Assembly (NCBI GenBank): GCA_910586595.1
Contig: CAJUJB010000010.1
Coordinates: 9,534-73,533, forward strand
Length of the DNA: 64,000 nucleotides
Reading direction: 5' to 3'
Source of the DNA: an uncultured Muribaculaceae bacterium
GTDB lineage: Bacteria; Bacteroidota; Bacteroidia; Bacteroidales; Muribaculaceae
Shown here: one piece after another, positions 1 to 18,973 of the stretch
Layout: every line of letters starts with the position of its first letter
How positions within the stretch are numbered: the first letter of the stretch is position 1
Made by a program: the position numbers and the translations under genes
Notes under the pieces: generated by a model
Database searches by the model: none
Told to the model about the DNA's origin: nothing
Seen by the model: only the letters and a program-made list of their open reading frames with translations

Positions 1-689
1 TGAAGGAGTTCAAGCGCCCCAACGTACTTTTCTCTTCTTCGGCCACTGTATATGGCGACGCTGAGGTTCTTCCCGTTACTGAGGAGACTCCCCGCCAGCC
101 GGCTACATCGCCTTACGGCAACACCAAGCAGATCGCTGAAGATATTCTCCGCGACTGCTGCCGCGCTTATGAAGGCTTCTTTGGCATAGCCCTCCGCTAT
201 TTCAACCCCATCGGTGCTCATCCCAGCGCGCTTATCGGTGAGCTTCCCCGCGGTGTACCCAACAACCTCATTCCTTTCGTTACCCAGACTGCTGCAGGTG
301 TGCGCGAATGCCTCTCTGTTTTCGGCAACGATTACGACACCCCCGACGGAACATGCCTCCGCGACTACATCGACGTTCTCGACCTTGCCAAGGCTCACGT
401 GGCCGCTGTAGACCGCATGGTTGATCACAAGATGAAAGAGAAATATGAGATCTTCAACGTCGGCACCGGCACTCCCGTCTCTGTGCTCGAGCTCATCACA
501 CGCTTCATGAAGGCTACCGGCGTTGACCTCCCCTATAAGATTGTAGGCCGCCGTGCCGGTGACGTTCCTGCCGTATGGGCCGACACCGCACTTGCCAACA
601 AGGAACTTGGCTGGAAGGCCGAGCGTGACCTCGACGACACTCTGCGTGCGTCGTGGAACTGGGAGAAACGTGTACGCGGCATCAAATAA
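1..689 (+). CDS. galE: UDP-glucose 4-epimerase, C-terminal part (5' end outside window)
   Basis: Frame 3 is open from nt 3 (KEFKRPNVLFSSSATVYGD...SPYGNTKQ, the SDR YxxxK motif) and continues into listed ORF 300..689. Stop is TAA at 687-689. Confidence 0.85.
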   Translation, partial: KEFKRPNVLFSSSATVYGDAEVLPVTEETPRQPATSPYGNTKQIAEDILRDCCRAYEGFFGIALRYFNPIGAHPSALIGELPRGVPNNLIPFVTQTAAGVRECLSVFGNDYDTPDGTCLRDYIDVLDLAKAHVAAVDRMVDHKMKEKYEIFNVGTGTPVSVLELITRFMKATGVDLPYKIVGRRAGDVPAVWADTALANKELGWKAERDLDDTLRASWNWEKRVRGIK

Positions 690-700
690 TAGCCTGTATC

Positions 701-1744
701 ATGCTTACTACAGCTAAATACCCCTCTCCCAAGGGTGAGATTACTCTCGTCACCATCACCAATGCCTCCGGCGCTTCGGTTGTGCTCAGCAACCTCGGCG
801 CAGGTATAGTGGAGGTGAATGTGCCTGACCGCGACGGCAAACTTGCCGACGTGGTGCTCGGTTATGCAAATCCTGCCGACTATATTGCCGACGGCCCCTG
901 CGCAGGCAAAGTGCCCGGCCGCTATGCCAACCGCATTGCCAAAGGCGACCTCAAGGTCGATGGCAAAGCTTATCAGCTCGAGATAAACAATGGCCCCAAT
1001 GCACTTCACGGTGGCTCGGAAGGCTTCCATAATCAGATCTGGACTATTGTGAGCGCTGAAGGAAATACCGTGGTGATGGAATACAAGGCCGCCGACGGTG
1101 AAGCAAATTATCCCGGTAATCTCACAGCCCGTGCAACTTACCGCTGGACCGATGCCAATGAGCTTGAGCTTACACTCGAAGCAACCACCGACGCCGCTAC
1201 GGTTGTGAACCTCACCAACCATGCTTACTGGAATCTTGCCGGTCATAACGCCGGCTCGGTGCTTGGTGAGAAGCTTCAGCTCAATGCATCGCAGTACCTG
1301 CCCACCGACAACACTCTGATTCCAGAAGGCGTGCTCGTGCCTGTGGCCGGTTCGCCCATGGATTTTACCTCCGCCAAAGCACTTGGTGACGAGATCAAGG
1401 TAGAATTCCCGGCTCTTGTCTATGGCAAGGGTTACGACAACTGCTGGGCTGTGGATAACTATACCCCCGGCAAAGTGCAGACCGTGGCCGTGCTCACCGA
1501 CGATGCCACCGGCCGTTGCCTCACGGTAGACTCCGACCAGCCTGGTGTGCAGATCTACACCGGTAACTGGCTCGCTGGCTGCCCCGCAAATAAAGCCGGT
1601 CGTGTATATGACGACTACGATGGTGTAGCCATCGAGTGCCAAGACTTCCCCGATGCGCCCCATAACACTGGCTTCCCCTCTACCGAGCTGCGCCCCGGAG
1701 AAAAATATTGCCGCCACATCAACTTTAAATTCACTGTATATTAA
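701..1744 (+). CDS. galM: aldose 1-epimerase (galactose mutarotase)
   Basis: ORF 653..1744 trimmed to the ATG at 701 (MLTTAKYPSPKGE), just after the galE stop. Mutarotase-like motifs are present: NALHGG, NLTNHAYWNL, DQPGVQIYTGN. Confidence 0.85.
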   Translation: MLTTAKYPSPKGEITLVTITNASGASVVLSNLGAGIVEVNVPDRDGKLADVVLGYANPADYIADGPCAGKVPGRYANRIAKGDLKVDGKAYQLEINNGPNALHGGSEGFHNQIWTIVSAEGNTVVMEYKAADGEANYPGNLTARATYRWTDANELELTLEATTDAATVVNLTNHAYWNLAGHNAGSVLGEKLQLNASQYLPTDNTLIPEGVLVPVAGSPMDFTSAKALGDEIKVEFPALVYGKGYDNCWAVDNYTPGKVQTVAVLTDDATGRCLTVDSDQPGVQIYTGNWLAGCPANKAGRVYDDYDGVAIECQDFPDAPHNTGFPSTELRPGEKYCRHINFKFTVY

Positions 1745-1747
1745 AAT

Positions 1748-2656
1748 ATGAAACCTACATTATTCATTCTTGCTGCAGGTATGGGTAGCCGCTACGGTGG
1801 CCTCAAGCAGCTCGACGGTCTGGGCCCCAACGGCGAGACCATCATGGACTACTCTGTATACGATGCAATCCAGGCTGGATTCGGCAAAGTTGTTTTCGTT
1901 ATCCGCAAGGATTTCGAGGCTGATTTCCGCGAAAAAGTACTCAGCAAATACGAAGGTGTTGTACCTACCGAAGTTGTATTCCAGTCAATCGACGCTCTTC
2001 CCGAAGGATACACCTGCCCCGCCGACCGCACCAAACCCTGGGGTACCAACCATGCCGTGCTCATGGGTAAGGACGCCATCAAAGAACCGTTTGCTGTAAT
2101 CAACGCCGACGACTTCTATGGCCGCGACGCATTCAAGGTAATCGCTGAAGATCTCATGCGTCCGCGCGACCGCAAGGGCGACTATTGTATGGTAGGTTTC
2201 CGCGTTGGCAACACCATGACCGAGAACGGCTCTGTTGCACGTGGTGTATGCGAGACTAAAGACGGCCTCCTCACCTCTGTTGTAGAGCGTACTGCCATCA
2301 GCTATGATCCCGAGCACCGCATCGTGTTCACCGACGAGAACGGCAAAGAACAGACTCTGGCTCCTACCACTCCCGTGTCGATGAACCTCTGGGGCTTCAC
2401 TCCCGACTTCTTCGAGTACAGCGACCGCGAATTCAAGAAATTCCTTGACCGAGACATCAATACTCCCAAGGCTGAATTCTTCATTCCCCTCTGTATCGAC
2501 GCCCTTATCAATGGTGGCGAAGCTACCGTTCGTGTGCTCGATACCGACTCGCGCTGGTTTGGTGTGACCTACAGCGCCGACCGCCCCGGTGTGGTTGATA
2601 AATTCGCTGAGCTTCACCGCGAAGGAGTTTATCCCTCGCCCCTCTTCAAGAAATAA
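1748..2656 (+). CDS. sugar-phosphate nucleotidyltransferase family protein
   Basis: N-terminal LAAGMGSRYGG matches the GxGxR signature of NTP_transferase enzymes. NADDFYG is also present. The gene starts 3 nt after galM. Confidence 0.6.
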   Translation: MKPTLFILAAGMGSRYGGLKQLDGLGPNGETIMDYSVYDAIQAGFGKVVFVIRKDFEADFREKVLSKYEGVVPTEVVFQSIDALPEGYTCPADRTKPWGTNHAVLMGKDAIKEPFAVINADDFYGRDAFKVIAEDLMRPRDRKGDYCMVGFRVGNTMTENGSVARGVCETKDGLLTSVVERTAISYDPEHRIVFTDENGKEQTLAPTTPVSMNLWGFTPDFFEYSDREFKKFLDRDINTPKAEFFIPLCIDALINGGEATVRVLDTDSRWFGVTYSADRPGVVDKFAELHREGVYPSPLFKK

Positions 2657-2700
2657 GCCGAGGTGTAACACCACATTAGCGGTTAAAGAATTTTAACTGC

Positions 2701-2734
2701 AAAGCCGCTCCGATAACACATTCGGAGCGGCTTT
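2701..2734 (+). terminator. hairpin terminator after the galE-galM-nucleotidyltransferase operon
   Basis: aaagccgctccg / cggagcggcttt, a 12-bp stem followed by a T-rich tail. Confidence 0.6.
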
Positions 2735-2871
2735 TCCTATTTTTATGTTGTAAAACATGTTTTGCCTTATCGTTCACGCTGATAGGTGTTTATATCCCAA
2801 AAAGTTCAAACCCTTAAGTAACATTTAGATTTTTTATCAAGGAAAAATTTCCGGAATTCGATGAAAATCGT

Positions 2872-2879
2872 TAATTTTG
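2872..2879 (+). promoter_or_regulatory. Bacteroidetes-type -7 box TAATTTTG upstream of ndk
   Basis: Exact TAnnTTTG match 43 nt upstream of the ndk ATG. Confidence 0.45.
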
Positions 2880-2921
2880 AGGCAATACCAATAGCATTAA
2901 CACGCATTAACACGCTCAACC

Positions 2922-3383
2922 ATGGAGCAGACATTTATAATCCTCAAACCTTCGACTATTACCCGTAGCCTTGTAGGCGACGTCATCACACGTTTCCAGC
3001 GCAAAGGCCTCATCATATCAGGCATCAAGATGATGCAGCTCAACGAAGAAATCCTCCGCGAGCACTATGCGCATCTTGTTGACCGTCCTTTCTTCCCCAC
3101 TCTCCTTAAGTCGATGATGGCTACACCGGTCATTGTGATGGTTCTCAAGGGTAAAGACGTGGTTCCGGTTGTCCGTGCCATGGTAGGTGCTACAAATTGC
3201 CGTGCTGCCGCCCCCGGCACTATCCGCGGTGATTTCGGTATGAGCGGTCAGGAGAACATAGTGCATGCCTCCGACAGCCCCGAAAATGCGGCAATTGAGA
3301 TTGCCCGTTTCTTCAAGCCTGAAGAAATTTTCGACTATGAGCCGCTGACTATGCCGGCTATCTACGCCCCCGACGAGCTTTAA
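2922..3383 (+). CDS. ndk: nucleoside diphosphate kinase
   Basis: 153 aa. Motifs TFIILKP, RGDFG and the NIVHASDS active-site His region are present. Confidence 0.9.
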   Translation: MEQTFIILKPSTITRSLVGDVITRFQRKGLIISGIKMMQLNEEILREHYAHLVDRPFFPTLLKSMMATPVIVMVLKGKDVVPVVRAMVGATNCRAAAPGTIRGDFGMSGQENIVHASDSPENAAIEIARFFKPEEIFDYEPLTMPAIYAPDEL

Positions 3384-3523
3384 GCGCGTCAGGTCGCTCG
3401 CCGGAGCACTCCGGCTTTATTCCATGGCCTTCGGGATCTCAAGCAAATTGCCGGAGTCTTGCAGGCCATGACCTCATTGTGATTAACTCTCTTCATCATT
3501 CCCACTCCAATCTCCGGACATTA

Positions 3524-4495
3524 ATGAAATCTACTATATTAGCACTCTCCACAGCCTTGCTTCTCGCCTTTGGCGCTTCCGCACAGAACTATCAGCTCCC
3601 CGACCGTCATGCTTCGCAGCACGACCAGTTGCTCGCCAACCAGGGTAATGCCGGTATTTCTGTGGAAAATACGACAAAGTATCTCGAAGAACTCTTCAAT
3701 GAGGAAGAGGAGCCGGAATTTGACATCTATACCGAGGGTTGGGACAGCAAACTTGTGAATTGCTATGCAGGTGTAGCTGTGCCTCAGACTGCCGATATCG
3801 ACGTATCGAAATTCGCCATTCCTCACCCCGGCTATATCACTTCGCCCTATGGCTACCGCAAACGTTTCCGCCGTATGCACAAGGGCGTCGATCTCAAGGT
3901 GAACATCGGCGACACCATCCGCGCCGCATTTGACGGTCGTGTACGCATCACCAACTTCGAGCGTCGCGGATATGGCTACTATGTTGTAGTTCGTCATACC
4001 AACGACCTCGAGACCGTATACGGTCACCTTTCAGGCTTCCTCGTTGAGCCGGGCGCATATGTCAAAGCCGGCGATCCCATCGCCCTTGGTGGTAATACAG
4101 GCCGCTCCACCGGCCCGCATCTTCACTTCGAGACCCGCTATATGGGATATGCCATCAATCCCTGCGCCATCTTCGATTTCGCCAATCAGACCACACATAC
4201 CGATACGTTTACGTTCGACAAGCGTACTTATCAGAATGCCCGCAACTACTCACCTGCGGCAAACAGCGAGTACGCCAAGCAGTATCTGAAAGATAATCCC
4301 ATCAAGCCTTACAAGGCAACCGCCTCTTCAGGAAATACGTCGAAGAGCTCTTCCGCAAGCTACCGCGTGCGCAAAGGCGACTCTCTCAGCAAAATCGCGT
4401 CGCGCAACGGCACCACCGTGGCCAAATTGTGCAAGCTGAACGGTATAAGCACATCTACCAAACTGCAGGTCGGACAGCGCCTGAAACTACGTTAA
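3524..4495 (+). CDS. M23 family metallopeptidase with C-terminal LysM domain
   Basis: ORF 3479..4495 trimmed to MKSTILALSTALLLAFGASA (signal peptide). M23 motifs HKGVDL and GPHLHFE are present. LysM region: YRVRKGDSLSKIASRNGTTVAKLCKLNGI. Confidence 0.85.
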   Translation: MKSTILALSTALLLAFGASAQNYQLPDRHASQHDQLLANQGNAGISVENTTKYLEELFNEEEEPEFDIYTEGWDSKLVNCYAGVAVPQTADIDVSKFAIPHPGYITSPYGYRKRFRRMHKGVDLKVNIGDTIRAAFDGRVRITNFERRGYGYYVVVRHTNDLETVYGHLSGFLVEPGAYVKAGDPIALGGNTGRSTGPHLHFETRYMGYAINPCAIFDFANQTTHTDTFTFDKRTYQNARNYSPAANSEYAKQYLKDNPIKPYKATASSGNTSKSSSASYRVRKGDSLSKIASRNGTTVAKLCKLNGISTSTKLQVGQRLKLR

Positions 4496-4501
4496 AACGC
4501 C

Positions 4502-4981
4502 ATGTTTAAAAAATTTCTTCTTATCGTAGCCTTTGTGGTGGCTCTCTGCATGCCATCGGCTATGGCTGACGAGCCTTCCGGCGTGTCAAAAGCCGATCTT
4601 CTGAAGGTATGTGAGAAAGTTCTCTCCACCCCTGTCTCCGACACAACCAAGGCAGCCACCCTCAGTAGCGTTTTGATTGCCTCTATTTCAGAGACCAAAG
4701 ATTATTCACTCCTGCTGGGTGATTGGGTGAAGCCGTTCACGTCTGTTGAAAACTCCACCCCCTGGCTTCTTTCCGCCTACATAGCGGCCGATACCAAGTA
4801 TGGCGTCGAGCATGGCCTCAAAACTTCCGATCTGAGCACCGTCAAAGCCGGATATGAAGGGGCAATCGAGTTCTATAAGGCGAATAAGAAAAATATAAAG
4901 GCCTCAAAAGAATTCAAGGCCCTGCTTAAGATGGACTCCGCTCAGCTTGACGAGTACATCGCATCTGTCTATAAACGTTAG
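4502..4981 (+). CDS. hypothetical secreted protein
   Basis: 159-aa ORF starting 6 nt after the M23 gene, with N-terminal signal peptide MFKKFLLIVAFVVALCMPSAMA. I recognise no family. Confidence 0.5.
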   Translation: MFKKFLLIVAFVVALCMPSAMADEPSGVSKADLLKVCEKVLSTPVSDTTKAATLSSVLIASISETKDYSLLLGDWVKPFTSVENSTPWLLSAYIAADTKYGVEHGLKTSDLSTVKAGYEGAIEFYKANKKNIKASKEFKALLKMDSAQLDEYIASVYKR

Positions 4982-5072
4982 TTTATAATCATCCCCCAAA
5001 CGGTACGGCGCTATAAATTCCACCGCATCGGCTCGAAGATCAAGTTTCGACAAACTGATTAATACAACACAA

Positions 5073-5102
5073 AAAAGGACGCTCACTCAGAAGCGTCCTT
5101 TT
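5073..5102. terminator. bidirectional hairpin terminator between convergent genes
   Basis: aaaaggacgc / gcgtcctttt stem flanked by an A-run and a T-run. Confidence 0.6.
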
Positions 5103-5154
5103 ATGTGTGAATTGAAGCCGGCTCGAGAGAGCTTGGGCCAGCAGATCTTTTGTA

Positions 5155-6530
5155 TCAGTTGAGCGGAATAAGTGATACGATTGCGCGGTTGGGATCGCTG
5201 AATATAATGTTATATTGTGCGGTCTTCAGGTCAACCGACACTGCCACCTTGTAGCCGTCCGACCGACGCGTACCTGTCATCTGGGCTTTGGCATGATTAT
5301 AGTCTGTTTCGATTGTTGTGATGTCGATTTCGTTGGCAAGACCCAAGTCTTTGTAATTGAACGTTAAGGTGATGGGGTCAAACGACACAACCTTGCATAT
5401 CTTGCTGTTTTCTCTCACGAGGCCATAGAAGCGTCCGTCATTGGCCAGATTCTCTTTCCATAGCATGATATTGCTGTCATTTCCGTCGTTATCCAGACGA
5501 CTGAATTTTTTTGTACGCTTGTCGAATATTATGTACCAGCCATATCTATCGTTCGTTTTGATAATCACTTTATCGGATGTCTCATACCAGGAGCTGAGAT
5601 AAACCTCGCCTAAAATCTCTGGAGACTCTAATTCTAATGGCTCGACGGTGCTTTGACCGTACGATGTTCCGATTGTTATAAGTTTAGGCTCGTGTGACAC
5701 CTCCAATAGAGCATCTTCAAGTATTACATATGAGGTGCGGTTATACGGGTTATTGATGGTACCGAAGGCGTCGTAGCCTCCATTGGGATAGATGATACCG
5801 GCTGTTTCGCCGGTTCGCAAGAGATTGTCGCTCCAGCAGGGTATAAAATAGATTGAAGTGGCTACCACGCCTCCCTTCATTGCGAAAACTTTTGGGTAAT
5901 CTCCGTATGCTATCGGAGAGCCGTCGGTGCTGAGTTGCTCCCAAGTGCCCTTGTTGTCAGAGAGGGTGATACGGCCTACATACCCAGGAAAATCGGTAGA
6001 GGACGTATAGAAACTTGCAAGCAGATGTCCGGCTCCGTCTTCAGTAAATCCCGATCCTATCGGCTCGAAACTTGCGGGATGGTTGGAGGGTCCGATACCT
6101 TTGGCGCTGAATACAAGACCGTCGCTTCGGCGGACAATCAGATTGAAGTACTCGTCAGTTGCGTATACTGGGTCGCCGTCGGCATCGTAGTAATCACACG
6201 CTACGAACGCAATGTAGTTTTCTGTCAGATTATAAACGTAAGCGGGCGATACCGTCAGATTCGACAGAGATTCCTTTCCGTCTTCATTTACAAAGACTCC
6301 CACGGCCGAGAGTTGACCATCGTCGCCAAGTTTGAACATTTTTGCGGTGCTGAAGTCACCATCGGTGGCTCGTGACTGCGCTGGGCTGAGCATTGTGAGG
6401 GCTTGGCTGTTGGCGAGGTCAAAACGTGTTATTGTTTTACCCCCCCTAATTCATCTGATTTGCAGGATGTTAAGCAGCTTGCGAGCAAAGCCGCCGCCAT
6501 CAGGCCGGTTGATAATTTGAAGTTGGTCAT
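5155..6530 (-). pseudogene. lipoprotein gene of unknown function, interrupted by a frameshift at a G7 homopolymer (phase-OFF allele, pseudogene or homopolymer sequencing error)
   Basis: The ATG at 6530 opens MTNFKLSTGLMAAALLASCLTSCKSDELGGVKQ* (lipobox LLASC), which stops at 6429. The 412-codon body ORF 5155..6393 is open in another frame right up to the G-run. One extra G would fuse the two. Confidence 0.6.
6440..6446 (-). repeat. G7 (C7 on + strand) homopolymer at the frameshift point
   Basis: ttaccccccctaa on the + strand. It lies immediately after the lipoprotein signal peptide codons. Confidence 0.9.
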
Positions 6531-6560
6531 AAATTGAGATTGAGATATGGTTTATTCTTA

Positions 6561-6568
6561 CAAAATTA
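6561..6568 (-). promoter_or_regulatory. -7 box TAATTTTG for the frameshifted lipoprotein gene, abutted by a T9 run (6570-6578)
   Basis: The minus strand reads cgtttttttttgTAATTTTGtaag, 30 nt upstream of the ATG at 6530. Confidence 0.45.
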
Positions 6569-6837
6569 CAAAAAAAAACGACAATCTATTTCTCTCCAGA
6601 AAAAAATTGGATTAGAGCAAGATAAGTAGTCATAAATCAGGTATAATTAGCTAAAAAACAAGTGTAGACCGCTAAGTAATCTATAATTCGCATGTATCTC
6701 GGCAGAGCATTAGTAACTTAGTTTAAGCAAATCGACCTATTCAGCAGTAATAGAGCCGCATGGCCTTGATAAGCAGGGAATGGTGCGGGGTATAAAATTT
6801 TCTTTTCCGCGCCGTCGTATTATGACGCGTTTTTTAC

Positions 6838-6845
6838 TACTTTTG
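6838..6845 (+). promoter_or_regulatory. -7 box TACTTTTG upstream of the DUF3298-like lipoprotein gene
   Basis: TAnnTTTG match 77 nt upstream of the ATG at 6922. Confidence 0.4.
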
Positions 6846-6921
6846 CAGCGTCAATAACGCGGAGGTGTTTAACTTACGGCTCCCCCGGGTGTTTATTATC
6901 TATAACCATCAACTTACAGAA

Positions 6922-7758
6922 ATGAAAAAGTCAAGCATCTCTCTCCTCGTTATAGCCGCGCTGGCCGCCTCTTTCGCCGCTTGCGACAGTGCCGATAAAT
7001 ATGCGTCAAATTCTATTGCGTTCAACCGGGTCGAGGCTGAGCAGGCCTATCGTCTCGTCGGTTCTGCAGAGGCTTATGAAACAGACGCCGACCTCAGCTA
7101 CGGATGCAAGGCCGATCTGCTTATGCCCACAGCTCTTTACGGTCAGCCTGTAGAGACGCTTCAGGATTCTATACTGCAGGCGGCTTTCGGTAAATACGGC
7201 AGCAATCACTCCGATGTAATCGCTCAGGCCCTGAAGGCTGAGGCTGCCGATCTTGACTATACTTTGGCCGATACGGTGATGCCTGACTCGGTGGTAAGCC
7301 AATATCCTAATTTCCTTACCCGTTTCGATGGATTTTCTTCAGTCGAGGGCGACCTGGAGACACTTACACCGAAGATTCTCTCGTATGCCGTGACTTTTTC
7401 CAATTATCTTCCTCGGGCTGCACATGGCATGTATGGCACCCGATATATCAACTATGACCTTACTGAAGGCAAGATCATATCTCTGAAAGATCTTTTCACT
7501 GCCGAGGGTCTGGCAGCTCTGCCCGATGCCATCCGCACTGCCGCCAAGCAGATGAAGGAAACGATCGGCGTGACTGATATAACCGGCCTCCCCGCTCAGG
7601 ATAATTTCTATATCACCGCCGGCAGCGAGGTAGTGTTCGCCTATCAGCCTTATGAAGTGGCCTCCTATGCCCAAGGCGAGATACAGATACCCATTCCTGC
7701 TTATCTGCTCTATGACTCGCTTACTCCGACGGGATTGCGTATCCTTCTCAACAACTGA
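6922..7758 (+). CDS. lipoprotein, DUF3298 (RsiV/PdaC C-terminal-like) family
   Basis: ORF 6865..7758 trimmed to MKKSSISLLVIAALAASFAAC (lipobox). AAHGMYGTRYINYDLTEGKIISLKDLF and FAYQPYEVASYAQGEIQIPIP resemble the DUF3298 consensus. Confidence 0.6.
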   Translation: MKKSSISLLVIAALAASFAACDSADKYASNSIAFNRVEAEQAYRLVGSAEAYETDADLSYGCKADLLMPTALYGQPVETLQDSILQAAFGKYGSNHSDVIAQALKAEAADLDYTLADTVMPDSVVSQYPNFLTRFDGFSSVEGDLETLTPKILSYAVTFSNYLPRAAHGMYGTRYINYDLTEGKIISLKDLFTAEGLAALPDAIRTAAKQMKETIGVTDITGLPAQDNFYITAGSEVVFAYQPYEVASYAQGEIQIPIPAYLLYDSLTPTGLRILLNN

Positions 7759-7822
7759 TAATGAACATTAGCCTTATGTAGGGTGTTTTGCTAAGAGAAG
7801 TCTAACAAAACACCCTACAATT

Positions 7823-8248
7823 ATGAATGCTAATCAGAAGGCGGCCGAAGCTGCCGCTAAAATATCGCAGGAGGCTGCACAGGTTTCAGCCAAAGCTGCC
7901 GACTATGCTGTAGAAGAACAAGCCAAAGCTGTGAAGGCTGATGCCGCCGCTGAGGTTGCCGATGCCAAGGCCAAGGCTGCGGAGGCTGTGGCTGCCGCCA
8001 AAGAAAAGGCTGCCGACATTGCCGCTGCTGCCAAGGATAAGGCCGCCCAGGCTGCCGCCAACATTCAGGACGCCATTGCTCAGCAACAGGAAGATCCGGA
8101 TTCAACCTATAATCAGGCTAAGGAAAAGGTGAGCGGTATCGCCGACAAGGTTCGCGACGTGACTGCAAATCTTGTTGACAAGGGCGCTGATCTGCTCGAT
8201 TCTCTGGCCGATAAGGCCCATGGCTTAGCCGATAAGATGGACAAGTAA
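7823..8248 (+). CDS. Ala/Lys/Asp-rich helical repeat protein (LEA/apolipoprotein-like low complexity)
   Basis: 141-aa ORF with KAAEAAAK / KAKAAEAVAAAKEKAADIAAAAKDKAAQAA periodic repeats and no signal peptide. Confidence 0.55.
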   Translation: MNANQKAAEAAAKISQEAAQVSAKAADYAVEEQAKAVKADAAAEVADAKAKAAEAVAAAKEKAADIAAAAKDKAAQAAANIQDAIAQQQEDPDSTYNQAKEKVSGIADKVRDVTANLVDKGADLLDSLADKAHGLADKMDK

Positions 8249-8264
8249 ATAAGACACATATAGA

Positions 8265-8303
8265 CAAGGCTCCGCAGCTGATCAGCCAGCTTGCGGAGCC
8301 TTG
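8265..8303. terminator. bidirectional hairpin terminator
   Basis: caaggctccgca / tgcggagccttg, a 12-bp stem between convergent gene ends (8248 and 8323). Confidence 0.65.
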
Positions 8304-8322
8304 ATTAATAGGGTCTCTGTCG

Positions 8323-11016
8323 TCAGATAGAGGTTTTTATAGTTGTCACACTGCCGTCGGCATGTGTGCGCTTGACTATGTATATACCCTTGGCTGGCTG
8401 CGTTACTTCGCGGCCTGAAAGATCGTAGTATGTGCGGGCAACAACCGGGCTCGGGTTAGTGAGGATAGATTCAAGGCCGGCGGCTTCGTCTACGATGTCG
8501 GAAACGGCCATAGCATCGAGCGCATAGTTGTAGATGCGGAGATCGTCAAGGTATCCGACGAAGAAATTATCACTGGCATTGGCGTTGCAGGCAATGTAGT
8601 TTACGGTCGGCTTGATGGCTGACAATGTCACTTCGGGAGAGAGGAGGGCAGAGCCAACCGCCACACCGTCGACATACAGCGTCATTTCGTCCTCTCCGAT
8701 TGTAGCCGCAAGGTGATGCCATTCCTTATCAAGAACCTCGCCCTCGACATTTAGGATGGCCCCTTTGTTTGAAGCGCTAAGAACCGGTTTCCCATCAATG
8801 GTGAAGCTGAGGCTGAGACCGCACGCCTCGCCATTGTTGAAATTGAAGATATATTGCGTCTGGCTGGCAGCTCCGCGACGAGCCCATGCAGCTACCGACA
8901 ACTCACGGTTACGGGCAATTGAGGTGGGGAGCTGGAGGAAATTGCCATTACCTCTGAGGCGGAGCGATTTTTCTGATTGCAGGCAGCCCGTACCGTAGGT
9001 ATTGGCCGTGCCGTCGGCATCGAGGTGATTGCCGCTCATATCGGCATGACTGTTTTCAAAGGTGTAGTGGGCAATGAGCGCGGGGGTGCCGGTGAAGCTG
9101 CCTGATGCAGATGATGTGCATGCCGACCGGTTGAGCGACTTATCTACCGCGCTTATTTTGTATAGGTATTCAACGCCGGCTATACCGGAGTTGTCGAGGA
9201 ATGAACACCCTGCAACATCGCGCGCTATAGTGTTGTATATGCCGTCAGATGCCTTGGCTCTGAGAATGGTGTAAGCAGCCACATCTTCCGATGCAGAAGG
9301 TGTCCATTCGAGCTGTACGCTCGCAATGCCGCTTGTTGCGGTAAGACCTGCGGGCGCGTCAGGGGCTACCGTCTCGCATGGAGCTCCTTCGGGCAGCAGA
9401 CGCCAGCGTTGCCGCGGGCTGTCGGAGTATTCTGCCTGACGTACGGCGATGCCGTCGGCCTGGCTATCCTCCCATACCTCGAGGCAGAGATTGCTGTGGC
9501 GGCTCAGGATGTGAAAATAACCGTCGCCGTCATATTTTAAATACCATTGTTCGTTTGCCCCGGTCGCACCGTTGAAGAGGATGATGCCGCCTCCGGCGTC
9601 AAGCGACCAGTTGAGGACGTCGAGTTTCATTTCCGGAGCGCTGGCCAAAGAGATGGTATAATAACTGAAGTCGCCTCCTATGGTGGTAGGAACGGGCTTT
9701 ACATCCCAGAGTTGGCTTCCGTCGCCTGAAAGAGTTTTCTGCACCAGTGGGGTGAGGTCGGCCGTGCCCCCGTCGGGTGTGAGCACCTTAAGGCTGTGTT
9801 GGTTCATGATGGCGTAGCGGCCGTCGGTGAGCGGGCGTACGTCTTCTCCGAAGCTGATGTCGACCACACACTCTGCGTTGGTCTGTCCGTCCTGATAGCC
9901 ATATCCTCCGGGGAGGTTTACAAGATACTCCCGGCTGGGGCCCTGTCCGTCGTAGTATACTTCTTCTCCGGTCGACACGAAGCGGAACGAGGATGGCTGA
10001 GCCTGCCGCTCTGATGTGCCGCAGAAAGCCTGGATTTTACCGGAGGGCGAACGGTAGACCGAGGCGGCAGTCCAAGCCGGCCGGTTTTCGGCGTAGGCGA
10101 GCCGTTCTCCAAAGCTGGCGCGGCAGAATTCACCGCGGGCATATTCGGCTGTACCCCACCAGATGCCTGTCTGCATGCCGTATTCAACCCCGACCATAGC
10201 CTCCATTACATTGTGGAGCTCGTCGGCTGTGGCATAGCGGCCATCTTCGCGTACGTGGGTGAAGAAGTCGGCATAGTGGTCGAAGTCTCCTGCAAGCTGG
10301 TGTGTGTTGCCTTCGTCGAGATACTCTTTGAGATAGTCATACCAGGGGGCTGCCTCGTCGCAATTCAGAGTGTTGCCGCCGCTGAGCCTTATCTCACCGT
10401 CGCTGAAGTGAGGGTACTCGGTCTTGAGCAAGCGTGCTATAGCAAGGAAGTCATCTTTTGAGCCTTGGTTATTGTATACGTAATCGGGTTCGTTGAGTGG
10501 AGATGCCGACACTACGTTCCATCCTTTATCCGCACACGATTTCATTGTGGCGTAGATGAGGTTGGCGTATGCGCGGCAGGCCACCGTGTCGGTGGCCGGA
10601 TTGGAGTAACGGGTATCGTATACATCGGCAGGGGCGTCGTTGTTGAGGGCGATGTCGACTCCTCCCTCGCCTTTTATGAGGCTCACCAGCCGCAGGCGTT
10701 CGCGAAGATTGGCTTCCAATGTCGGTGTGAGCGCTGTAGAGTCGGCCACCATCTCCCATGGCTGGAAAGAAACCCTTGCCACGCCTATGTTGTCGGCTCC
10801 GATATAAGAGACACCCCGGCGCATGTTGTCCTCGCTGGGCCAAGCTGTGTCGAGGCCCCAGAGTATCGGGAGGCTGGTGCCTGTGCTGTCGGTGTTGAAG
10901 AATAAAGTTCGGTCGGCGGGTGAGAGGGCCTGGAAGGTTGTCTGGAACTGCGCTTTGACATTCTGCGGTATTCCAGTGCCTAATAAGGCGATTGCGCAGA
11001 TAAGTGCGTTTTTCAT
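8323..11016 (-). CDS. secreted multidomain glycoside hydrolase-like protein: TIM-barrel GH-like domain + ricin-B lectin + FN3 + LamG/concanavalin-like + T9SS C-terminal domain
   Basis: 897 aa with signal peptide. NEPDY motif in the N-terminal domain. QxW-type ricin repeats (QLWDV, EQWYL, QRWRL). LDDLRIYNYAL is LamG-like. The tail YYDLSGREVTQPAKGIYIVKRTHADGSVTTIKTSI is T9SS CTD-like. Confidence 0.7.
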   Translation of the reverse strand: MKNALICAIALLGTGIPQNVKAQFQTTFQALSPADRTLFFNTDSTGTSLPILWGLDTAWPSEDNMRRGVSYIGADNIGVARVSFQPWEMVADSTALTPTLEANLRERLRLVSLIKGEGGVDIALNNDAPADVYDTRYSNPATDTVACRAYANLIYATMKSCADKGWNVVSASPLNEPDYVYNNQGSKDDFLAIARLLKTEYPHFSDGEIRLSGGNTLNCDEAAPWYDYLKEYLDEGNTHQLAGDFDHYADFFTHVREDGRYATADELHNVMEAMVGVEYGMQTGIWWGTAEYARGEFCRASFGERLAYAENRPAWTAASVYRSPSGKIQAFCGTSERQAQPSSFRFVSTGEEVYYDGQGPSREYLVNLPGGYGYQDGQTNAECVVDISFGEDVRPLTDGRYAIMNQHSLKVLTPDGGTADLTPLVQKTLSGDGSQLWDVKPVPTTIGGDFSYYTISLASAPEMKLDVLNWSLDAGGGIILFNGATGANEQWYLKYDGDGYFHILSRHSNLCLEVWEDSQADGIAVRQAEYSDSPRQRWRLLPEGAPCETVAPDAPAGLTATSGIASVQLEWTPSASEDVAAYTILRAKASDGIYNTIARDVAGCSFLDNSGIAGVEYLYKISAVDKSLNRSACTSSASGSFTGTPALIAHYTFENSHADMSGNHLDADGTANTYGTGCLQSEKSLRLRGNGNFLQLPTSIARNRELSVAAWARRGAASQTQYIFNFNNGEACGLSLSFTIDGKPVLSASNKGAILNVEGEVLDKEWHHLAATIGEDEMTLYVDGVAVGSALLSPEVTLSAIKPTVNYIACNANASDNFFVGYLDDLRIYNYALDAMAVSDIVDEAAGLESILTNPSPVVARTYYDLSGREVTQPAKGIYIVKRTHADGSVTTIKTSI

Positions 11017-11045
11017 GAATTTAGGTCAGGATAGAATATAAAGAC

Positions 11046-11084
11046 GCACCGCATCACTATGGTCGGGCACGTGTGATGCGGTGC
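11046..11084 (-). terminator. hairpin terminator after ackA
   Basis: gcaccgcatcac / gtgatgcggtgc, a 12-bp stem followed by a T-rich stretch on the minus strand. Confidence 0.6.
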
Positions 11085-11098
11085 GGTAGGTTACTGGA

Positions 11099-12304
11099 TT
11101 ATTTCTTCACGAGAGCCTCGGTGTCGCGGGCGATCATGAGTTCTTCGTCGGTGGGGATTACGCAAACTTTTACGCGTGAGCCGGCGGCAGAGATGACGGC
11201 CTCGGTGCCGCGGGTGGCCGCGTTGACGTCTTTGTCGAGTTCAACACCCATGAAGCCGAGGGTGGCGCAAACGTCGGCACGGAGTTTGGCCTGGTTTTCG
11301 CCAACACCGCCGGTGAAGACGATGATGTCGGCACCGCCCATTTCGGCTGCATATGCACCGATATATTTGGTGATACGGAGCTCATACATGTCAAGAGCGA
11401 GTTTTGCTCGTTCGTTTCCGGCTTCGATGGCAGCATCAATCTCGCGCATGTCGTTGCTGATGCCGCTGATGCCGAGCACACCACTTTCTTTGTTGATTAC
11501 GGTCTGGAGCTGGTCGGGGGTGAGGTGGTGCTTGTTCATGATGTAGATGAGGGCGCCGGGATCAACGTCGCCTACGCGTGTGCCCATCATGAGGCCTTCA
11601 ACGGGGGTGAGGCCCATCGAGGTGTCTACACATTTTCCGCCAACGATGGCAGCCATAGAGCCGCCGTTGCCGATATGGCAAGTGATGATGCGTTGTTTGG
11701 TGATGTCTACGCCGAGGAATTTGCATACACGCTCGCTTACATAGCGGTGGCTGGTGCCGTGGAAGCCGTAGCGGCGTACGCCGTCCTCGGTGTAATATTT
11801 GTAGGGGAGGGCGTACATGTATGCCTTGGCAGGCATAGTCTGGTGGAAGGCTGTGTCGAACACACCTACCTGGGGCACGTTGGGCATCAGAGCCGTGATT
11901 GCCTCGACGCCTGTCATGTTGGCAGGGTTGTGGAGGGGGGCCAGATCATAGCATTCGCGTACTTTGGCCTTGACGTCATCGTCGATGAGCACACTCTGGC
12001 TGAATTTTTCGCCGCCGTGCACGAGACGGTGACCAACGGCTTCAATTTCGTCGAAGCTCTTTATGCAGCCTTCCTTGGCGTCGGTGAGGTTGGCGAGGAT
12101 GGCTTTGATGGCATCCTTATGGTCGATAAGACCGAGCTCCACTACTTCTTTCGAGCCGTCGGCGCGCTTGAATTTGAGGAATCCGCCAGGAAGGCCGATT
12201 TTTTCAACGCCGCCTTCTGCCAGTGTGTCGGCATGCTCGCCTTCAAGGTCAATAAGCTTATATTTTACCGAGCTGCTGCCGGAATTAAGTACGAGGATTT
12301 TCAT
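11099..12304 (-). CDS. ackA: acetate kinase
   Basis: 401 aa. MKILVLNSGSSSVKYKL N-terminus plus motifs RYGFHGTSH and VFTGGVGEN. Confidence 0.95.
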   Translation of the reverse strand: MKILVLNSGSSSVKYKLIDLEGEHADTLAEGGVEKIGLPGGFLKFKRADGSKEVVELGLIDHKDAIKAILANLTDAKEGCIKSFDEIEAVGHRLVHGGEKFSQSVLIDDDVKAKVRECYDLAPLHNPANMTGVEAITALMPNVPQVGVFDTAFHQTMPAKAYMYALPYKYYTEDGVRRYGFHGTSHRYVSERVCKFLGVDITKQRIITCHIGNGGSMAAIVGGKCVDTSMGLTPVEGLMMGTRVGDVDPGALIYIMNKHHLTPDQLQTVINKESGVLGISGISNDMREIDAAIEAGNERAKLALDMYELRITKYIGAYAAEMGGADIIVFTGGVGENQAKLRADVCATLGFMGVELDKDVNAATRGTEAVISAAGSRVKVCVIPTDEELMIARDTEALVKK

Positions 12305-12308
12305 TGGT

Positions 12309-13322
12309 TCAGATGTTTTTAAGGCCGATAGCCTGGTTGCAGGTTATGATGATTGTCTTGTAGATGTCTTCGGGGAAGCAGCCGCGTGAGAGGTCGTTGA
12401 CGGGGGCTGCGAGGCCTTGAAGAACCGGGCCTACTGCCTGTACGCCGCCGAGACGCTGTACGAGTTTATAGGCGATGTTGCCTACTTCAAGGTTGGGGAA
12501 CACAAGCACGTTGGCGCGTCCGCTCAGAGGGCTGTTGGGGGCCTTGCTTGAAGCTACCGAGGGAACTATTGCTGCGTCGGCCTGGAGCTCGCCGTCGAGG
12601 ATGAGGTCGGGAGCGAGTTTGTGAGCAATCTCGGTGGCCTCGATGACCTTGTCGACGTTGGGGCTTTTTGCTGAGCCTTTGGTCGAGAAGGAGAGGAGGG
12701 CGACGCGAGGCTCGATGCCTGCGATGTCGCGGGCGGTGCGGGCGGCAGATACGGCGATCTGGGCGAGCTCGGGGGCGGTAGGATCGGGAACCACTGCGCA
12801 GTCTGCGAAGATGAGGATTCCGTCGGTGCCGAATTTCGAATCCTTCGGCAGTAGCATTACAAATGCACCGGATACGACGCTGATGCCGGGCTCAGTCTTG
12901 ATTACCTGGAAGGCTGCGCGGAGAACATTGCCGGTGGTGTTCATGGCTCCGGCCACCTGGCCGTCGGCGTCGCCGGCCTTGACCATAAGGCAACCGAGAT
13001 AGAGGGGGTTGGCTGTGGTGAGACGGGCTTCTTCCATTGTGATGCCTTTCGACTTGCGGAGCTCATAGAAAAGAGGCGCATAGCGGTCGATGACCTTTTC
13101 GTCGGCAGGGTCGACGATGGTGGCGCGGTCGAGGTGTGTGAGTTTGAGCTCGGCGGCCATGTTATGGATGTCGTCGGGGCTTCCGATGAGTATGATGTCG
13201 GCCAGTTCATCTGCGATGATACGGTCGGCTGCGGTGAGGGTACGGGGTTCAAGACCTTCGGGAAGCACTATGCGCTGACGGTGCTCATGTGCTTTGCGGG
13301 TGAGTTTTTCAAAAAGTTCCAT
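12309..13322 (-). CDS. pta: phosphate acetyltransferase
   Basis: 337 aa, 4 nt upstream of ackA. PTA_PTB-like motifs are present ([31 protein letters not shown]). Confidence 0.9.
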
Positions 13323-13353
13323 TGTCTTGCTGTTGCAAATGTGTTTTATGATG

Positions 13354-13361
13354 CAAAGTTA
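13354..13361 (-). promoter_or_regulatory. -7 box TAACTTTG for pta-ackA
   Basis: The minus strand reads gcTAACTTTGcatc, 32 nt upstream of the pta ATG. Confidence 0.45.
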
Positions 13362-13502
13362 GCTATTTTTGGGCTATCGGCGGATGCTTCGGACCGCATT
13401 TTTTAATTGTCAGGACAAACAATAATCGGGCGTCGGATGTTAGATAGTAAACGCCCCTGCGAGGGGCGTGGATAATGTTTCAACTGATTAAACTATACTC
13501 AA

Positions 13503-13673
13503 ATGCCCAGCTTAAAGACAGACAAACGTAACCGCGCCAGCGTATGGGTTGCCATCGGCGCGATATTCCTGATTATTCTCCTTATACTTTGGCTCACTTT
13601 CGCCGATTTGACCGGTAATACCGATGTGGCAGCCTTCCTGGCTCCGTATATCGTCAACAGCCCTGTGAGCTGA
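13503..13673 (+). CDS. possible small membrane protein (56 aa)
   Basis: Found by hand and below the ORF-track cutoff: MPSLKTDKRNRASVWVAIGAIFLIILLILWLTFADL..., one TM helix. I recognise no homology. Confidence 0.3.
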   Translation: MPSLKTDKRNRASVWVAIGAIFLIILLILWLTFADLTGNTDVAAFLAPYIVNSPVS

Positions 13674-13701
13674 TATAATCTCCTCTAAATAGTTTTAGAT
13701 T

Positions 13702-14007
13702 ATGAATGAACTTATTGCCATAACTCCCGAGCGCATCGGCTGGATAATATGGGCCGTATGGGTCGTGGTCGGCATTGTGGCGGCTCTCGTGGCTGCACGT
13801 TGCACAGGCCCCCGCACCTTCCTCTTCGATCTTATAATCGGGGTTGTCGCAGCCGTCCTTGGCGGCTATCTCAGCACTTGTTTCATCGGCGGAGGCCCCG
13901 TACAGCTTTTCCTCCTCTCGGTGCTTGGATCAGCATTTTTCGCAGCTGCCGCCCTGTGGATTACCGCTGCGCTGATCTCCCATTTCCGCAAGTCGGACGG
14001 GCTTTGA
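13702..14007 (+). CDS. GlsB/YeaQ/YmgE-type small membrane protein
   Basis: 101 aa with three hydrophobic Gly-rich helices (GIVAALVA, IIGVVAAVLGGYL) typical of the transglycosylase-associated family. Confidence 0.55.
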   Translation: MNELIAITPERIGWIIWAVWVVVGIVAALVAARCTGPRTFLFDLIIGVVAAVLGGYLSTCFIGGGPVQLFLLSVLGSAFFAAAALWITAALISHFRKSDGL

Positions 14008-14056
14008 TCAACCCTCCTGCATTTATTTGACTGTAATTGTGTGTTATAATATATAA

Positions 14057-14089
14057 AGAGTGCGCCGTCCGGTGAGGATGGCGCACTCT
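14057..14089. terminator. bidirectional hairpin terminator
   Basis: agagtgcgcc / ggcgcactct stem between convergent gene ends. Confidence 0.55.
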
Positions 14090-14110
14090 GTGCATTTTCT
14101 GCCGCTTCGA

Positions 14111-14662
14111 TTATTTTTTGAAGTAACGGTTGAAGAGGCCCTGGAAGCCGCGGCCGTGGCGAGCTTCGTCTTTAGCCATTTCGTGTACGGTGTCATGGAT
14201 GGCGTCGAGACCGAGTTCTTTAGCACGGCGTGCGATGCGCATCTTGTCTTCGTTAGCACCAGCTTCAGCAGCCATACGCTTTTCGAGGTTTGTACGGGTA
14301 TCCCATACGCATTCGCCGAGGAGCTCAGCAAATTTTGCAGCGTGCTCAGCTTCTTCGAATGCATAGCGCTTGAAGGCCTCTGCGATTTCGGGATAGCCTT
14401 CGCGGTCGGCCTGACGGCTCATTGCGAGGTACATGCCAACTTCACCGCACTCGCCGTTGAAGTGAGCGGTAAGGTCTTTGATCATTTCCTCGTCGCAGTC
14501 TTTGGCTACGCCGATTTCGTGCTCAGTAACGAATGTAAGCTCGGCTTCGGGGTCGAGTTCATTGAATTTGCTGCGGGGTGCGCCGCAGATAGGGCACTTT
14601 TCGGGAGCTTCGTCACCTTCGTGAACATAGCCGCATACGGTGCAGATGAATTTCTTTTTCAT
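14111..14662 (-). CDS. rubrerythrin family protein with N-terminal rubredoxin-like domain (reverse rubrerythrin arrangement)
   Basis: CTVCGYVH...CPICGAP lies at the N-terminus. A ferritin-like four-helix region follows with EEAEHAAKF and MAKDEARHG. Confidence 0.85.
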
Positions 14663-14714
14663 ATAAGTGAAATTTACGGAGTGTCGTTTATGTCAGTTTA
14701 TGTTGTGTAGTGAA

Positions 14715-15902
14715 TCAGGCAATGATACCGTGCTTGCGGAAAATCTTGGTGATCTTCTCAAGGGCTTCCTCAACCTGGGCGGGAGTGTGTGTGGCCATAA
14801 GGCTGAAGCGGATGAGGGTATCCTGAGGTGCTACAGCAGGCGATACAACGGGGTTGACGAAGATTCCTTCTTCGAGCAGCTCGCTGGTGATTGCGAATGT
14901 CTTGAAGTTGTCGCGGATATAGAGGGGGATGATCGGAGTTGATGTGTTGCCGATTTCAAAGCCGCGGCTGCGGAAGCCTTCGAGAGCCTGGTTGGTGAGC
15001 TTCCAGAGATTTTCCTGGCGCTCGGGTTCTTCGATCATGAGGTCGATAGCCTTGAGGGCTGCTGCCGTTGAGGCCGGAGTGATGCTCGCTGTAAAGATAT
15101 ATGAGCGAGAGTGGTGGCGGAGGAAGTTGGTAATCTCCTTGTCGGTGGCGATGAAGCCGCCCAGAGAGGCAAACGACTTGGAGAATGTACCCATGATGAG
15201 ATCCACGTCATCGCTTACGCCGAAGTGGTTGCAGACGCCGCGACCACCTTCACCGAAGACACCGATAGAGTGAGCTTCGTCAACCATGACGGTTGCATTA
15301 TATTTCTTTGCAAGCTCGGTGATGGCGGGGAGGTTTGCCACATCGCCTTCCATCGAGAACACACCGTCGGTGACGATGAGCTTGATTTTGTCGGGCGCAC
15401 ATTTCTGGAGCTGTTTTTCGAGCGACTCCATGTCGTTGTGCTTATATTTGAGCGATTGGCTGAACGACAGACGACGGCCTTCGATGATGGATGCGTGATC
15501 TTGCTCATCCCAGAGGATATAGTCTTCGCGACCGGTGAGAGTCGACACAACGCCGAGGTTTACACCGAAGCCTGTGGAGTAGATCATCACATCTTCCTTG
15601 CCGATATATTCGGCGATGCGTGCCTCGAGTTTCTTGTGGAGGTCGAGTGTGCCGTTGAGGAAGGGAGAGCCGGCACATCCGGTGCCGTATTTCTTGATGG
15701 CTTCGATTGCAGCCTCTTTGATGCGGGGGTCATTGACAAGACCTGTGTAGCAGTTGGATCCGAACATCAGCACGCGGCGACCATTGATGGTTACTTCGGG
15801 ATCCTGCTCCGACGATATGGCGCGGAAGTAAGGATAGATCCCGGCAGCTTTGGCTTCCTGGGGTGCGGTATATTTGGAAAGCTTTGCCTGTAGTGGTTTC
15901 AT
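14715..15902 (-). CDS. spt: alpha-oxoamine synthase; probable serine palmitoyltransferase
   Basis: 395 aa. GIYPYFR, MFGSNCYTGL, DEAHSIGVFG and the GTFSKSFASLGGF PLP-lysine motif are present. As far as I recall it closely resembles Bacteroides/Porphyromonas SPT rather than BioF. Confidence 0.7.
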   Translation of the reverse strand: MKPLQAKLSKYTAPQEAKAAGIYPYFRAISSEQDPEVTINGRRVLMFGSNCYTGLVNDPRIKEAAIEAIKKYGTGCAGSPFLNGTLDLHKKLEARIAEYIGKEDVMIYSTGFGVNLGVVSTLTGREDYILWDEQDHASIIEGRRLSFSQSLKYKHNDMESLEKQLQKCAPDKIKLIVTDGVFSMEGDVANLPAITELAKKYNATVMVDEAHSIGVFGEGGRGVCNHFGVSDDVDLIMGTFSKSFASLGGFIATDKEITNFLRHHSRSYIFTASITPASTAAALKAIDLMIEEPERQENLWKLTNQALEGFRSRGFEIGNTSTPIIPLYIRDNFKTFAITSELLEEGIFVNPVVSPAVAPQDTLIRFSLMATHTPAQVEEALEKITKIFRKHGIIA

Positions 15903-15982
15903 AGTTTACGGATAACGATTGGAAATAAACTATCTGAGCGGTTGCGCAGCCCCAGTCTGGACTGCCCTCTCGAGTCAGGCTG

Positions 15983-15990
15983 CAAAGTTA
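15983..15990 (-). promoter_or_regulatory. -7 box TAACTTTG upstream of spt
   Basis: The minus strand reads agTAACTTTGcagc, about 80 nt upstream of the spt ATG. Confidence 0.4.
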
Positions 15991-16072
15991 CTAAAAAAAT
16001 CTTAATGCGTTTAGCTCCGTTGGCTTTTTTTAAGGATAGAGCCGGGCTTGCTGTAGATATACATGGAAGAGC

Positions 16073-18757: not shown

Positions 18758-18782
18758 GGTGCTCGGATAAAGGTGATGTCGA

Positions 18783-18790
18783 CAAAGATA
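18783..18790 (-). promoter_or_regulatory. -7 box TATCTTTG upstream of the LRR gene
   Basis: TAnnTTTG match on the minus strand, 26 nt upstream of the ATG at 18757. Confidence 0.4.
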
Positions 18791-18914
18791 AGGTAAATGC
18801 GTGGAATGGACAACTGGTTAACGATTGTTAACTTGCAAGTCGAAGGCTTCGATGGTCAATCACCTCCAAAAACGATTGGGATGAAAAGAATTTGCTCAAT
18901 TTCACAATTTTTTG

Positions 18915-18922
18915 TACCTTTG
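18915..18922 (+). promoter_or_regulatory. -7 box TACCTTTG upstream of the CapD-like gene
   Basis: TAnnTTTG match 52 nt upstream of the ATG at 18974. Confidence 0.4.
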
Positions 18923-18973
18923 CCGTCGCTTTTCAATTCATTATAATTTAAGTCCCATACCCGTTCAACGTAT

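Follow-up and report, generated by a model that had tools for sequence, protein, structure and literature searches.

The best described counterparts of the locus analyzed here are hmbR, hpuAB, nalP and mspA of Neisseria meningitidis and the poly-G loci of Campylobacter jejuni, in which a G/C homopolymer in the 5' part of an open reading frame (ORF) for a surface or secreted protein turns expression ON or OFF by frameshift (PMC3786947, PMC3723659, PMC8355987, PMC6321876). At these loci, isolates that are otherwise identical have tracts of different length, and orthologues retain the tract. Contingency loci driven by repeats are mostly seen as a pathogen trait, and a review has asked whether this view reflects sampling bias (PMC11868660). 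Here we describe a poly-G tract in a lipoprotein gene of an uncultured Muribaculaceae bacterium, located in a 64,000-nucleotide stretch of contig CAJUJB010000010.1 (positions 9,534 to 73,533; hereafter the window, with coordinates counted from its first base). We consider it very likely that this is a slipped-strand contingency locus gating a predicted surface-exposed, beta-propeller-like lipoprotein. The mechanism is already known, and it is the taxon and the gene family that are new for it. Relative to the Neisseria and Campylobacter loci, the present one belongs to a commensal gut bacterium and to an uncharacterized lipoprotein family, has its tract exactly at the junction of export signal and mature body, and shows short tract lengths (6-10).

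Two other groups of systems invite comparison. The invertible promoters and shufflons of Bacteroides, which act on capsules and SusC/SusD, share with our locus the bacterial order, the niche, surface structures as targets and a presumed role in bet-hedging; they rely on site-specific recombinases and inverted repeats, however, whereas the change here is a repeat-length frameshift (PMC11868660). The same review describes phase variation in Bacteroidales as inversion-based only, through invertible promoters and shufflons, and our literature searches returned no account of phase variation by repeats in Bacteroidales or Muribaculaceae, a result that is not proof of absence. The Vlp, Vsa and Vpma systems of Mycoplasma (PMC2268961) are likewise multigene families of surface lipoproteins that are switched independently, some of them by homopolymer tracts. 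Those tracts are mostly promoter poly-A, or the switching is recombinational, and the proteins are unrelated repeat proteins, in contrast to the coding-sequence tract and beta-propeller-like fold found here.

The gene lies on the minus strand, and direct reading of the letters bore out all the coordinates that an initial annotation of the window had given for it. An ATG at 6530 starts an ORF with a lipoprotein signal peptide, whose product is MTNFKLSTGLMAAALLASCLTSCKSDELGGVKQ followed by a stop. Translation and conservation place the start codon, signal peptide and lipobox up to a conserved Cys23 (LTS-C) at 6462-6530, and the K-S-D-E that directly follows the lipidated cysteine, resembling a lipoprotein export signal, at 6450-6461. 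The tract itself is a G7 run at 6440-6446, corresponding to codons 29-31 of a 458-codon gene. With seven G's, translation from the ATG yields MTNFKLSTGLMAAALLASCLTSCKSDELGG-VKQ and ends at a premature TAA (6429-6431), making a signal-peptide ORF of only 33 codons. The lipoprotein body (5155-6439, with its stop codon at 5155-5157) is present in the neighboring frame as a 412-codon ORF (6393-5155) that is open upstream from 6450, to a TGA at 6453-6451. In this frame the sequence across the tract reads AGG GGG GGT AAA ACA; one additional G changes it to TTA GGG GGG GGT AAA ACA and fuses signal peptide and body into a single ORF of 458 codons. Lengths of G5, G8 and G11 are thus ON, G7 and G10 share one OFF frame that ends at the TAA (…GGVKQ-stop and …GGGVKQ-stop), and G9 falls in the other (…GGG-stop), with G7, G9 and G10 all truncating translation after 31-34 codons. 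The allele in the window is the G7 OFF state. A Met codon at 6393 was considered as a genuine start for the body and rejected: it is not conserved, the orthologues having A, I or T at that position, or another Met.

These features suggest a simple mechanism. In this monocistronic gene, a presumably hypermutable poly-G tract lies five to seven codons downstream of the lipidated cysteine. Slipped-strand mispairing at replication is the most likely way for it to gain and lose G's, and each change of length would shift the body of about 430 codons into or out of register with the signal peptide. A 458-amino acid lipoprotein would be made from G8 (or from G5 or G11), and its Cys-K-S-D-E start points to export to the cell surface. 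With G7, G9 or G10, translation would stop after the short leader and the body would presumably not be made, because it has neither a conserved start nor an export signal of its own.

The initial annotation had proposed the G tract as a slipped-strand frameshift switch, and comparison of the window with public metagenomes supports this proposal. We compared window positions 6200-6800 with Logan contigs of public runs from 12 independent mouse-gut samples belonging to four studies; runs X17-X20 were left out because their coverage was too low for reading the tract. Four lengths were found: G7 in three samples (S1, runs X1 and X2; S2, runs X3 and X4; S4, run X6), G8 in two (S5, X7; S8, X10), G9 in five (S3, X5; S6, X8; S7, X9; S9, X11, at a depth of 313; S10, X12) and G10 in the remaining two (S12, X14; S13, X15). 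Apart from the tract, the 12 samples showed no difference at all in 601 nt. Lengths also differed within studies, with 9, 7, 8 and 9 G's in study P2 and 9, 8 and 9 in study P3. When positions 1-20000 of the window were compared across four runs, the tract was the sole indel, accompanied by one to three single-nucleotide polymorphisms (SNPs). Two of the runs, X10 with G8 and X11 with G9, have identical SNPs, and we therefore conclude that the tract changes within a strain lineage, with ON and OFF alleles occurring in one strain background. The populations compared are near-clonal, and slippage is the probable cause of the length differences between them, which would be reversible.

Homopolymers are error-prone on some sequencing platforms and the lengths were read from consensus contigs, so that a single true length obscured by miscalling or misassembly has to be weighed. 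The initial annotation had argued against a base-calling error, an argument now backed by the agreement of replicates and the constancy of other runs. Technical replicates of the same sample are concordant (X1 with X2, and X3 with X4), and the consensus depth reaches 313x at this tract and 517x at the tract of a related gene discussed below. Five A/T runs of at least 7 and a G6 run in window positions 1-20000 are invariant, as is a T9 run only 130 nt away from the tract. Moreover, assemblies in NCBI, ENA and Logan, which come from independent assemblers and archives, contain the same set of tract lengths. An artefact is therefore, in our judgment, highly improbable.

In-frame alleles have been recorded as well. 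A search with the read-through protein retrieved the 412-amino acid product of the window itself (P0001) on 46 contigs, together with full-length relatives of 449-468 amino acids at 51-65% identity that have the signal peptide in frame (P0002, P0003, P0005, P0007 and P0008), two of which, P0007 and P0008, are without the tract. All holders of the locus are mouse-gut metagenomes, and the relatives are labelled Muribaculaceae. The exact 458-amino acid product expected from G8 (P0015) is recorded in NCBI, ENA and Logan assemblies, as is a 458-amino acid variant (P0017); the fusion that the initial annotation had predicted thus exists letter for letter in public assemblies. In the four loci encoding P0015 and P0017 (L023-L026) the tract is G8 and the T9 is unchanged, and 2.17 kb of sequence differs from the window by only 1-4 SNPs.

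The existence of these in-frame G8 alleles, and of in-frame alleles without a tract, bears on the idea that the DNA state is not the switch, and that a fixed tract is instead expressed through programmed ribosomal frameshifting or transcriptional slippage. Homopolymer runs can provoke slippage of RNA polymerase, and some leaky expression from OFF alleles is conceivable. The shift that recoding would have to supply, however, differs among alleles of the same strain (one frame change for G7 and G10, the other for G9) and also among orthologues. Neither the fixed offset nor the conserved slippery signal by which frameshifting or slippage genes are recognized was found: neither a slippery heptamer nor a downstream structure is conserved, since the flanks vary from one orthologue to the next. 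Recoding as the principal explanation thus appears very unlikely.

The tract is not peculiar to one species. Comparing the DNA around homologues at the same site, in orthologues of 45-66% identity, we found G7 in L004 and G9 in L019, both OFF, whereas members of the same species group (L006, L007, L010 and L015) have the interrupted spelling GGAGGAAGT and are locked ON; the locked-ON spelling occurs naturally in L006 as GGAGGAGGT. L008 has G8 and is ON, and L013, with a protein body that is about 100% identical, has G9 and is OFF. A G6 tract leaves L009 OFF. Two paralogues of the human-gut metagenome-assembled genome UMGS401 have G8 (L002/L011, with the 414-amino acid product P0012) and G9 (L003/L012), and both are OFF. 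In L005 the tract has decayed to GGAGGGC and the gene is OFF. The locked-ON species group has the family tandemly duplicated, with another member ending just upstream of the L010 gene (L010:900-1010), and in L007 the family gene is followed by an ORF of 449 amino acids (L007:3040-4353).

A paralogous subfamily (subfamily B, 30% identity, in another species) has the tract at a different place, inside the signal peptide (…VLVLGGGTSC). Its alleles are G9 and ON in L014, G7 and OFF in L020, and G8 and OFF in L021, with at most one mismatch in 1 kb of their flanks. Between samples, six runs had G9 in this tract and two had G8, one of these two at the depth of 517 mentioned above; it did not vary in runs X23-X26, where it was always G9.

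The bodies of all these genes appear to be maintained. Every OFF allele retains 404-430 intact codons and has no second lesion, and the pairwise ratio of nonsynonymous to synonymous substitution rates (dN/dS) lies mostly at 0.1-0.3 and reaches 0.3-0.7 in the closest pairs, values that indicate purifying selection on the body. A plain, fixed pseudogene, the reading invited by an out-of-frame allele whose annotated product is without an export signal, should instead show further disabling mutations and relaxed constraint. The intact bodies and low dN/dS give no sign of either, and in-frame alleles occur in the same strain. The initial annotation had named a fixed in-frame tract, pointing to an assembly error, and a plain degraded pseudogene as the outcomes that would speak against a switch; the series from G7 to G10 and the intact bodies contradict both. 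Because four tract lengths occur with otherwise unchanged sequence, and ON and OFF alleles in one background, we regard the artefact as effectively ruled out and can give a fixed pseudogene virtually no credence.

The composition of the window underlines how unusual the tract is. It is the sole G/C run of at least 7 in the 64 kb, where about 8 such runs are expected from base composition. GGG is the rarest glycine codon in the window (8.4%), and none of the 90 Gly-Gly pairs in its long open frames is spelled GGG-GGG; codon usage therefore does not explain the pure-G stretch. A distant family member, P0045, spells a GGGGG linker as GGCGGCGGAGGCGGC (GGC GGC GGA GGC GGC), so that the glycine linker is a feature of the protein family, and its pure-G spelling one of the DNA in particular clades. 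The broader proposal that all glycine-run linkers in the wider family are poly-G tracts was rejected, since the GGGGG of P0045 is encoded by this mixed-codon sequence. Outside the same-site comparison, G/C runs of 7 also lie near two family genes (L014:502-508 and L003:2989-2995); one is in frame inside an upstream glycosidase-like ORF of the type IX secretion system (T9SS) kind, and the other falls between convergent genes.

Several observations weigh against a contingency locus. The lengths come from consensus contigs, and mixtures within a sample, or switching within a population, were not directly seen; the contigs of X13 and X16, both of low depth, end exactly at the tract, which is compatible with mixed lengths and is weak evidence of them. 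ON alleles are a minority, found in two of the 12 samples and on roughly five contigs as against 66. Tracts of G7-G10 are at the short end when set against the fast-switching tracts of Campylobacter or Neisseria. The locus was not found in any of the RNA sequencing (RNA-seq) runs searched. Finally, the L005 gene (L005:1440-1480), with its decayed tract, is frameshifted while its body is otherwise intact, and may be either a decayed switch caught in the OFF state or an error in a short Logan contig.

An ON minority could equally result from drift of a dispensable gene, and one alternative to a switch is that the tract is simply a mutational hot spot, the gene being dispensable for life in the mouse gut. 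On this account slippage would occur without selection for switchability, lengths would drift, and the gene would be heading for loss, as the predominance of OFF lengths, the decayed and frameshifted L005 and the lack of an assigned function for the protein might suggest. Such a history is hard to reconcile with the retention of pure G at the same site despite saturation at synonymous sites, the rarity of GGG among glycine codons and the depletion of G/C runs. It also does not account for the absence of a second lesion from any OFF allele in more than 400 codons, for the dN/dS of 0.1-0.3, or for the recurrence of ON alleles in the same strain background. We thus consider the dispensable hot spot unlikely and favor a contingency locus. 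As far as sequence can show, the gene has every property by which simple-sequence-repeat contingency loci are recognized: an uninterrupted homopolymer of about 7 or more in the 5' part of the coding region, a tract that is the sole variable indel, ON and OFF alleles that both occur naturally, and retention of the tract in relatives. An adaptive role in bet-hedging, for example against immunoglobulin A (IgA) or phage, would be in keeping with this reading.

What the switch would control is a protein of a small and poorly described family. Two cysteines fit the lipobox in this species, C19 (LAS-C) and C23 (LTS-C), and the one conserved across orthologues is C23 and not C19, being present in P0002, P0003, P0005, P0008 and the split orthologues. 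In the orthologues the cysteine is followed by ESDD, ESDE, KSDD or NSDE. The experimentally defined lipoprotein export signal is C-X-K-(D/E)2-X, and we compared the C-K-S-D-E of our gene with this motif and with SDDDD (Lauber et al. 2016, PMC5080379). It has a polar or positive residue followed by two acidic ones within positions +2 to +6, with the acidic pair at +4/+5, as in C-X-K-(D/E)2-X. Because of this resemblance, we predict that the lipoprotein is exposed on the cell surface. Sequence searches of Pfam, NCBIfam and PDB gave no family match for the protein. An AlphaFold2 (AF2) model is all-beta, with a predicted local distance difference test score (pLDDT) of 79.6 and a predicted template modeling score (pTM) of 0.79, and Foldseek returned only generic beta-propeller matches at template modeling (TM) scores of 0.2-0.4, from which no function could be assigned. 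A profile search of 1.84 billion representatives gathered 117 clusters at 50% identity, and nearly all of the 117 representatives have a lipobox followed by an acidic start of the S-D-D/E type. This small lipoprotein family, for which there is no Pfam or NCBIfam model, is probably a family of variable surface antigens.

The surroundings of the gene are consistent with an independent transcription unit. A Bacteroidetes-type -7 box, TAATTTTG, lies at 6568-6561 on the minus strand, 30 nt upstream of the ATG; it is among the 50 matches to the pattern TANNTTTG (24.9 expected), and the same box was found in orthologues. It probably acts as a promoter element. At the other end, a hairpin followed by a T run (5102-5073, minus strand) resembles an intrinsic terminator and would close the transcription unit. 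Because the gene has its own -7 box and this hairpin with its T run, we take it to be monocistronic. Position 5103, which adjoins the terminator stem, is A in the window and T in all four compared runs; over the 20 kb no other base sets the window apart from all four.

The initial annotation had also assigned a role to a T9 run (6578-6570, minus strand), the longest A/T run in the window, as a second homopolymer touching the -7 box that could alter promoter geometry. The run is present as described, and it is separated from TAATTTTG by one base, a G, rather than touching it. Its proposed variability did not hold up: the run is T9 in all contigs of the 12 samples and at the four further loci L023-L026, and does not change with the G tract; in orthologues from other species the corresponding run is T5 or T7. 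A T9 promoter-spacer switch is accordingly rejected, and the run is simply a T-rich stretch close to the promoter. A different arrangement is seen in L022, where a G8 run (L022:233-240) lies about 20 nt upstream of a -7 box, TAACTTTG, ahead of a family member of 25% identity; this G8, found on a single low-coverage contig, may represent the same kind of switch acting on transcription.

Two further observations concern the region around the gene. The divergent neighbor (6865-7758) is likewise a lipoprotein gene (DUF3298, lipobox FAA-C), with its own -7 box at 6838-6845 and without a homopolymer tract. Elsewhere in the window, over a serine-palmitoyltransferase-like gene (14200-14430), the X10 contig has 54 differing positions, mostly three bases apart, a pattern suggesting that the sample also contains a second, related strain or species.

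An attractive, if still speculative, extension is that Muribaculaceae, and perhaps other gut Bacteroidales, possess a repeat-based "phasome". Gene neighborhoods differ between species and some genomes have tandem copies, and in the human-gut genome UMGS401 the two paralogues lie at different chromosomal sites, each with a tract (G8 and G9) and both OFF in the assembly. Under such a scheme, several copies of beta-propeller-like lipoprotein genes per genome would each be gated independently by a poly-G tract of their own, located downstream of the lipobox, within the signal peptide or in the promoter. The result would be combinatorial surface variation, with the in vivo ratio of ON to OFF possibly set by host IgA or phages.

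Whatever the fate of that broader idea, a commensal mouse-gut bacterium appears to have a textbook poly-G switch whose natural ON and OFF alleles are legible in public metagenomes. For annotation, the case is a warning, in that the 412-amino acid "protein without signal peptide" is an artefact that arises because the allele is OFF. The tract is also a tractable marker with which to follow bottlenecks and selection, by IgA or phage, on Muribaculaceae in mice. If the phasome is real, it would constitute a second layer of surface variation in these bacteria beside the known invertase switches.
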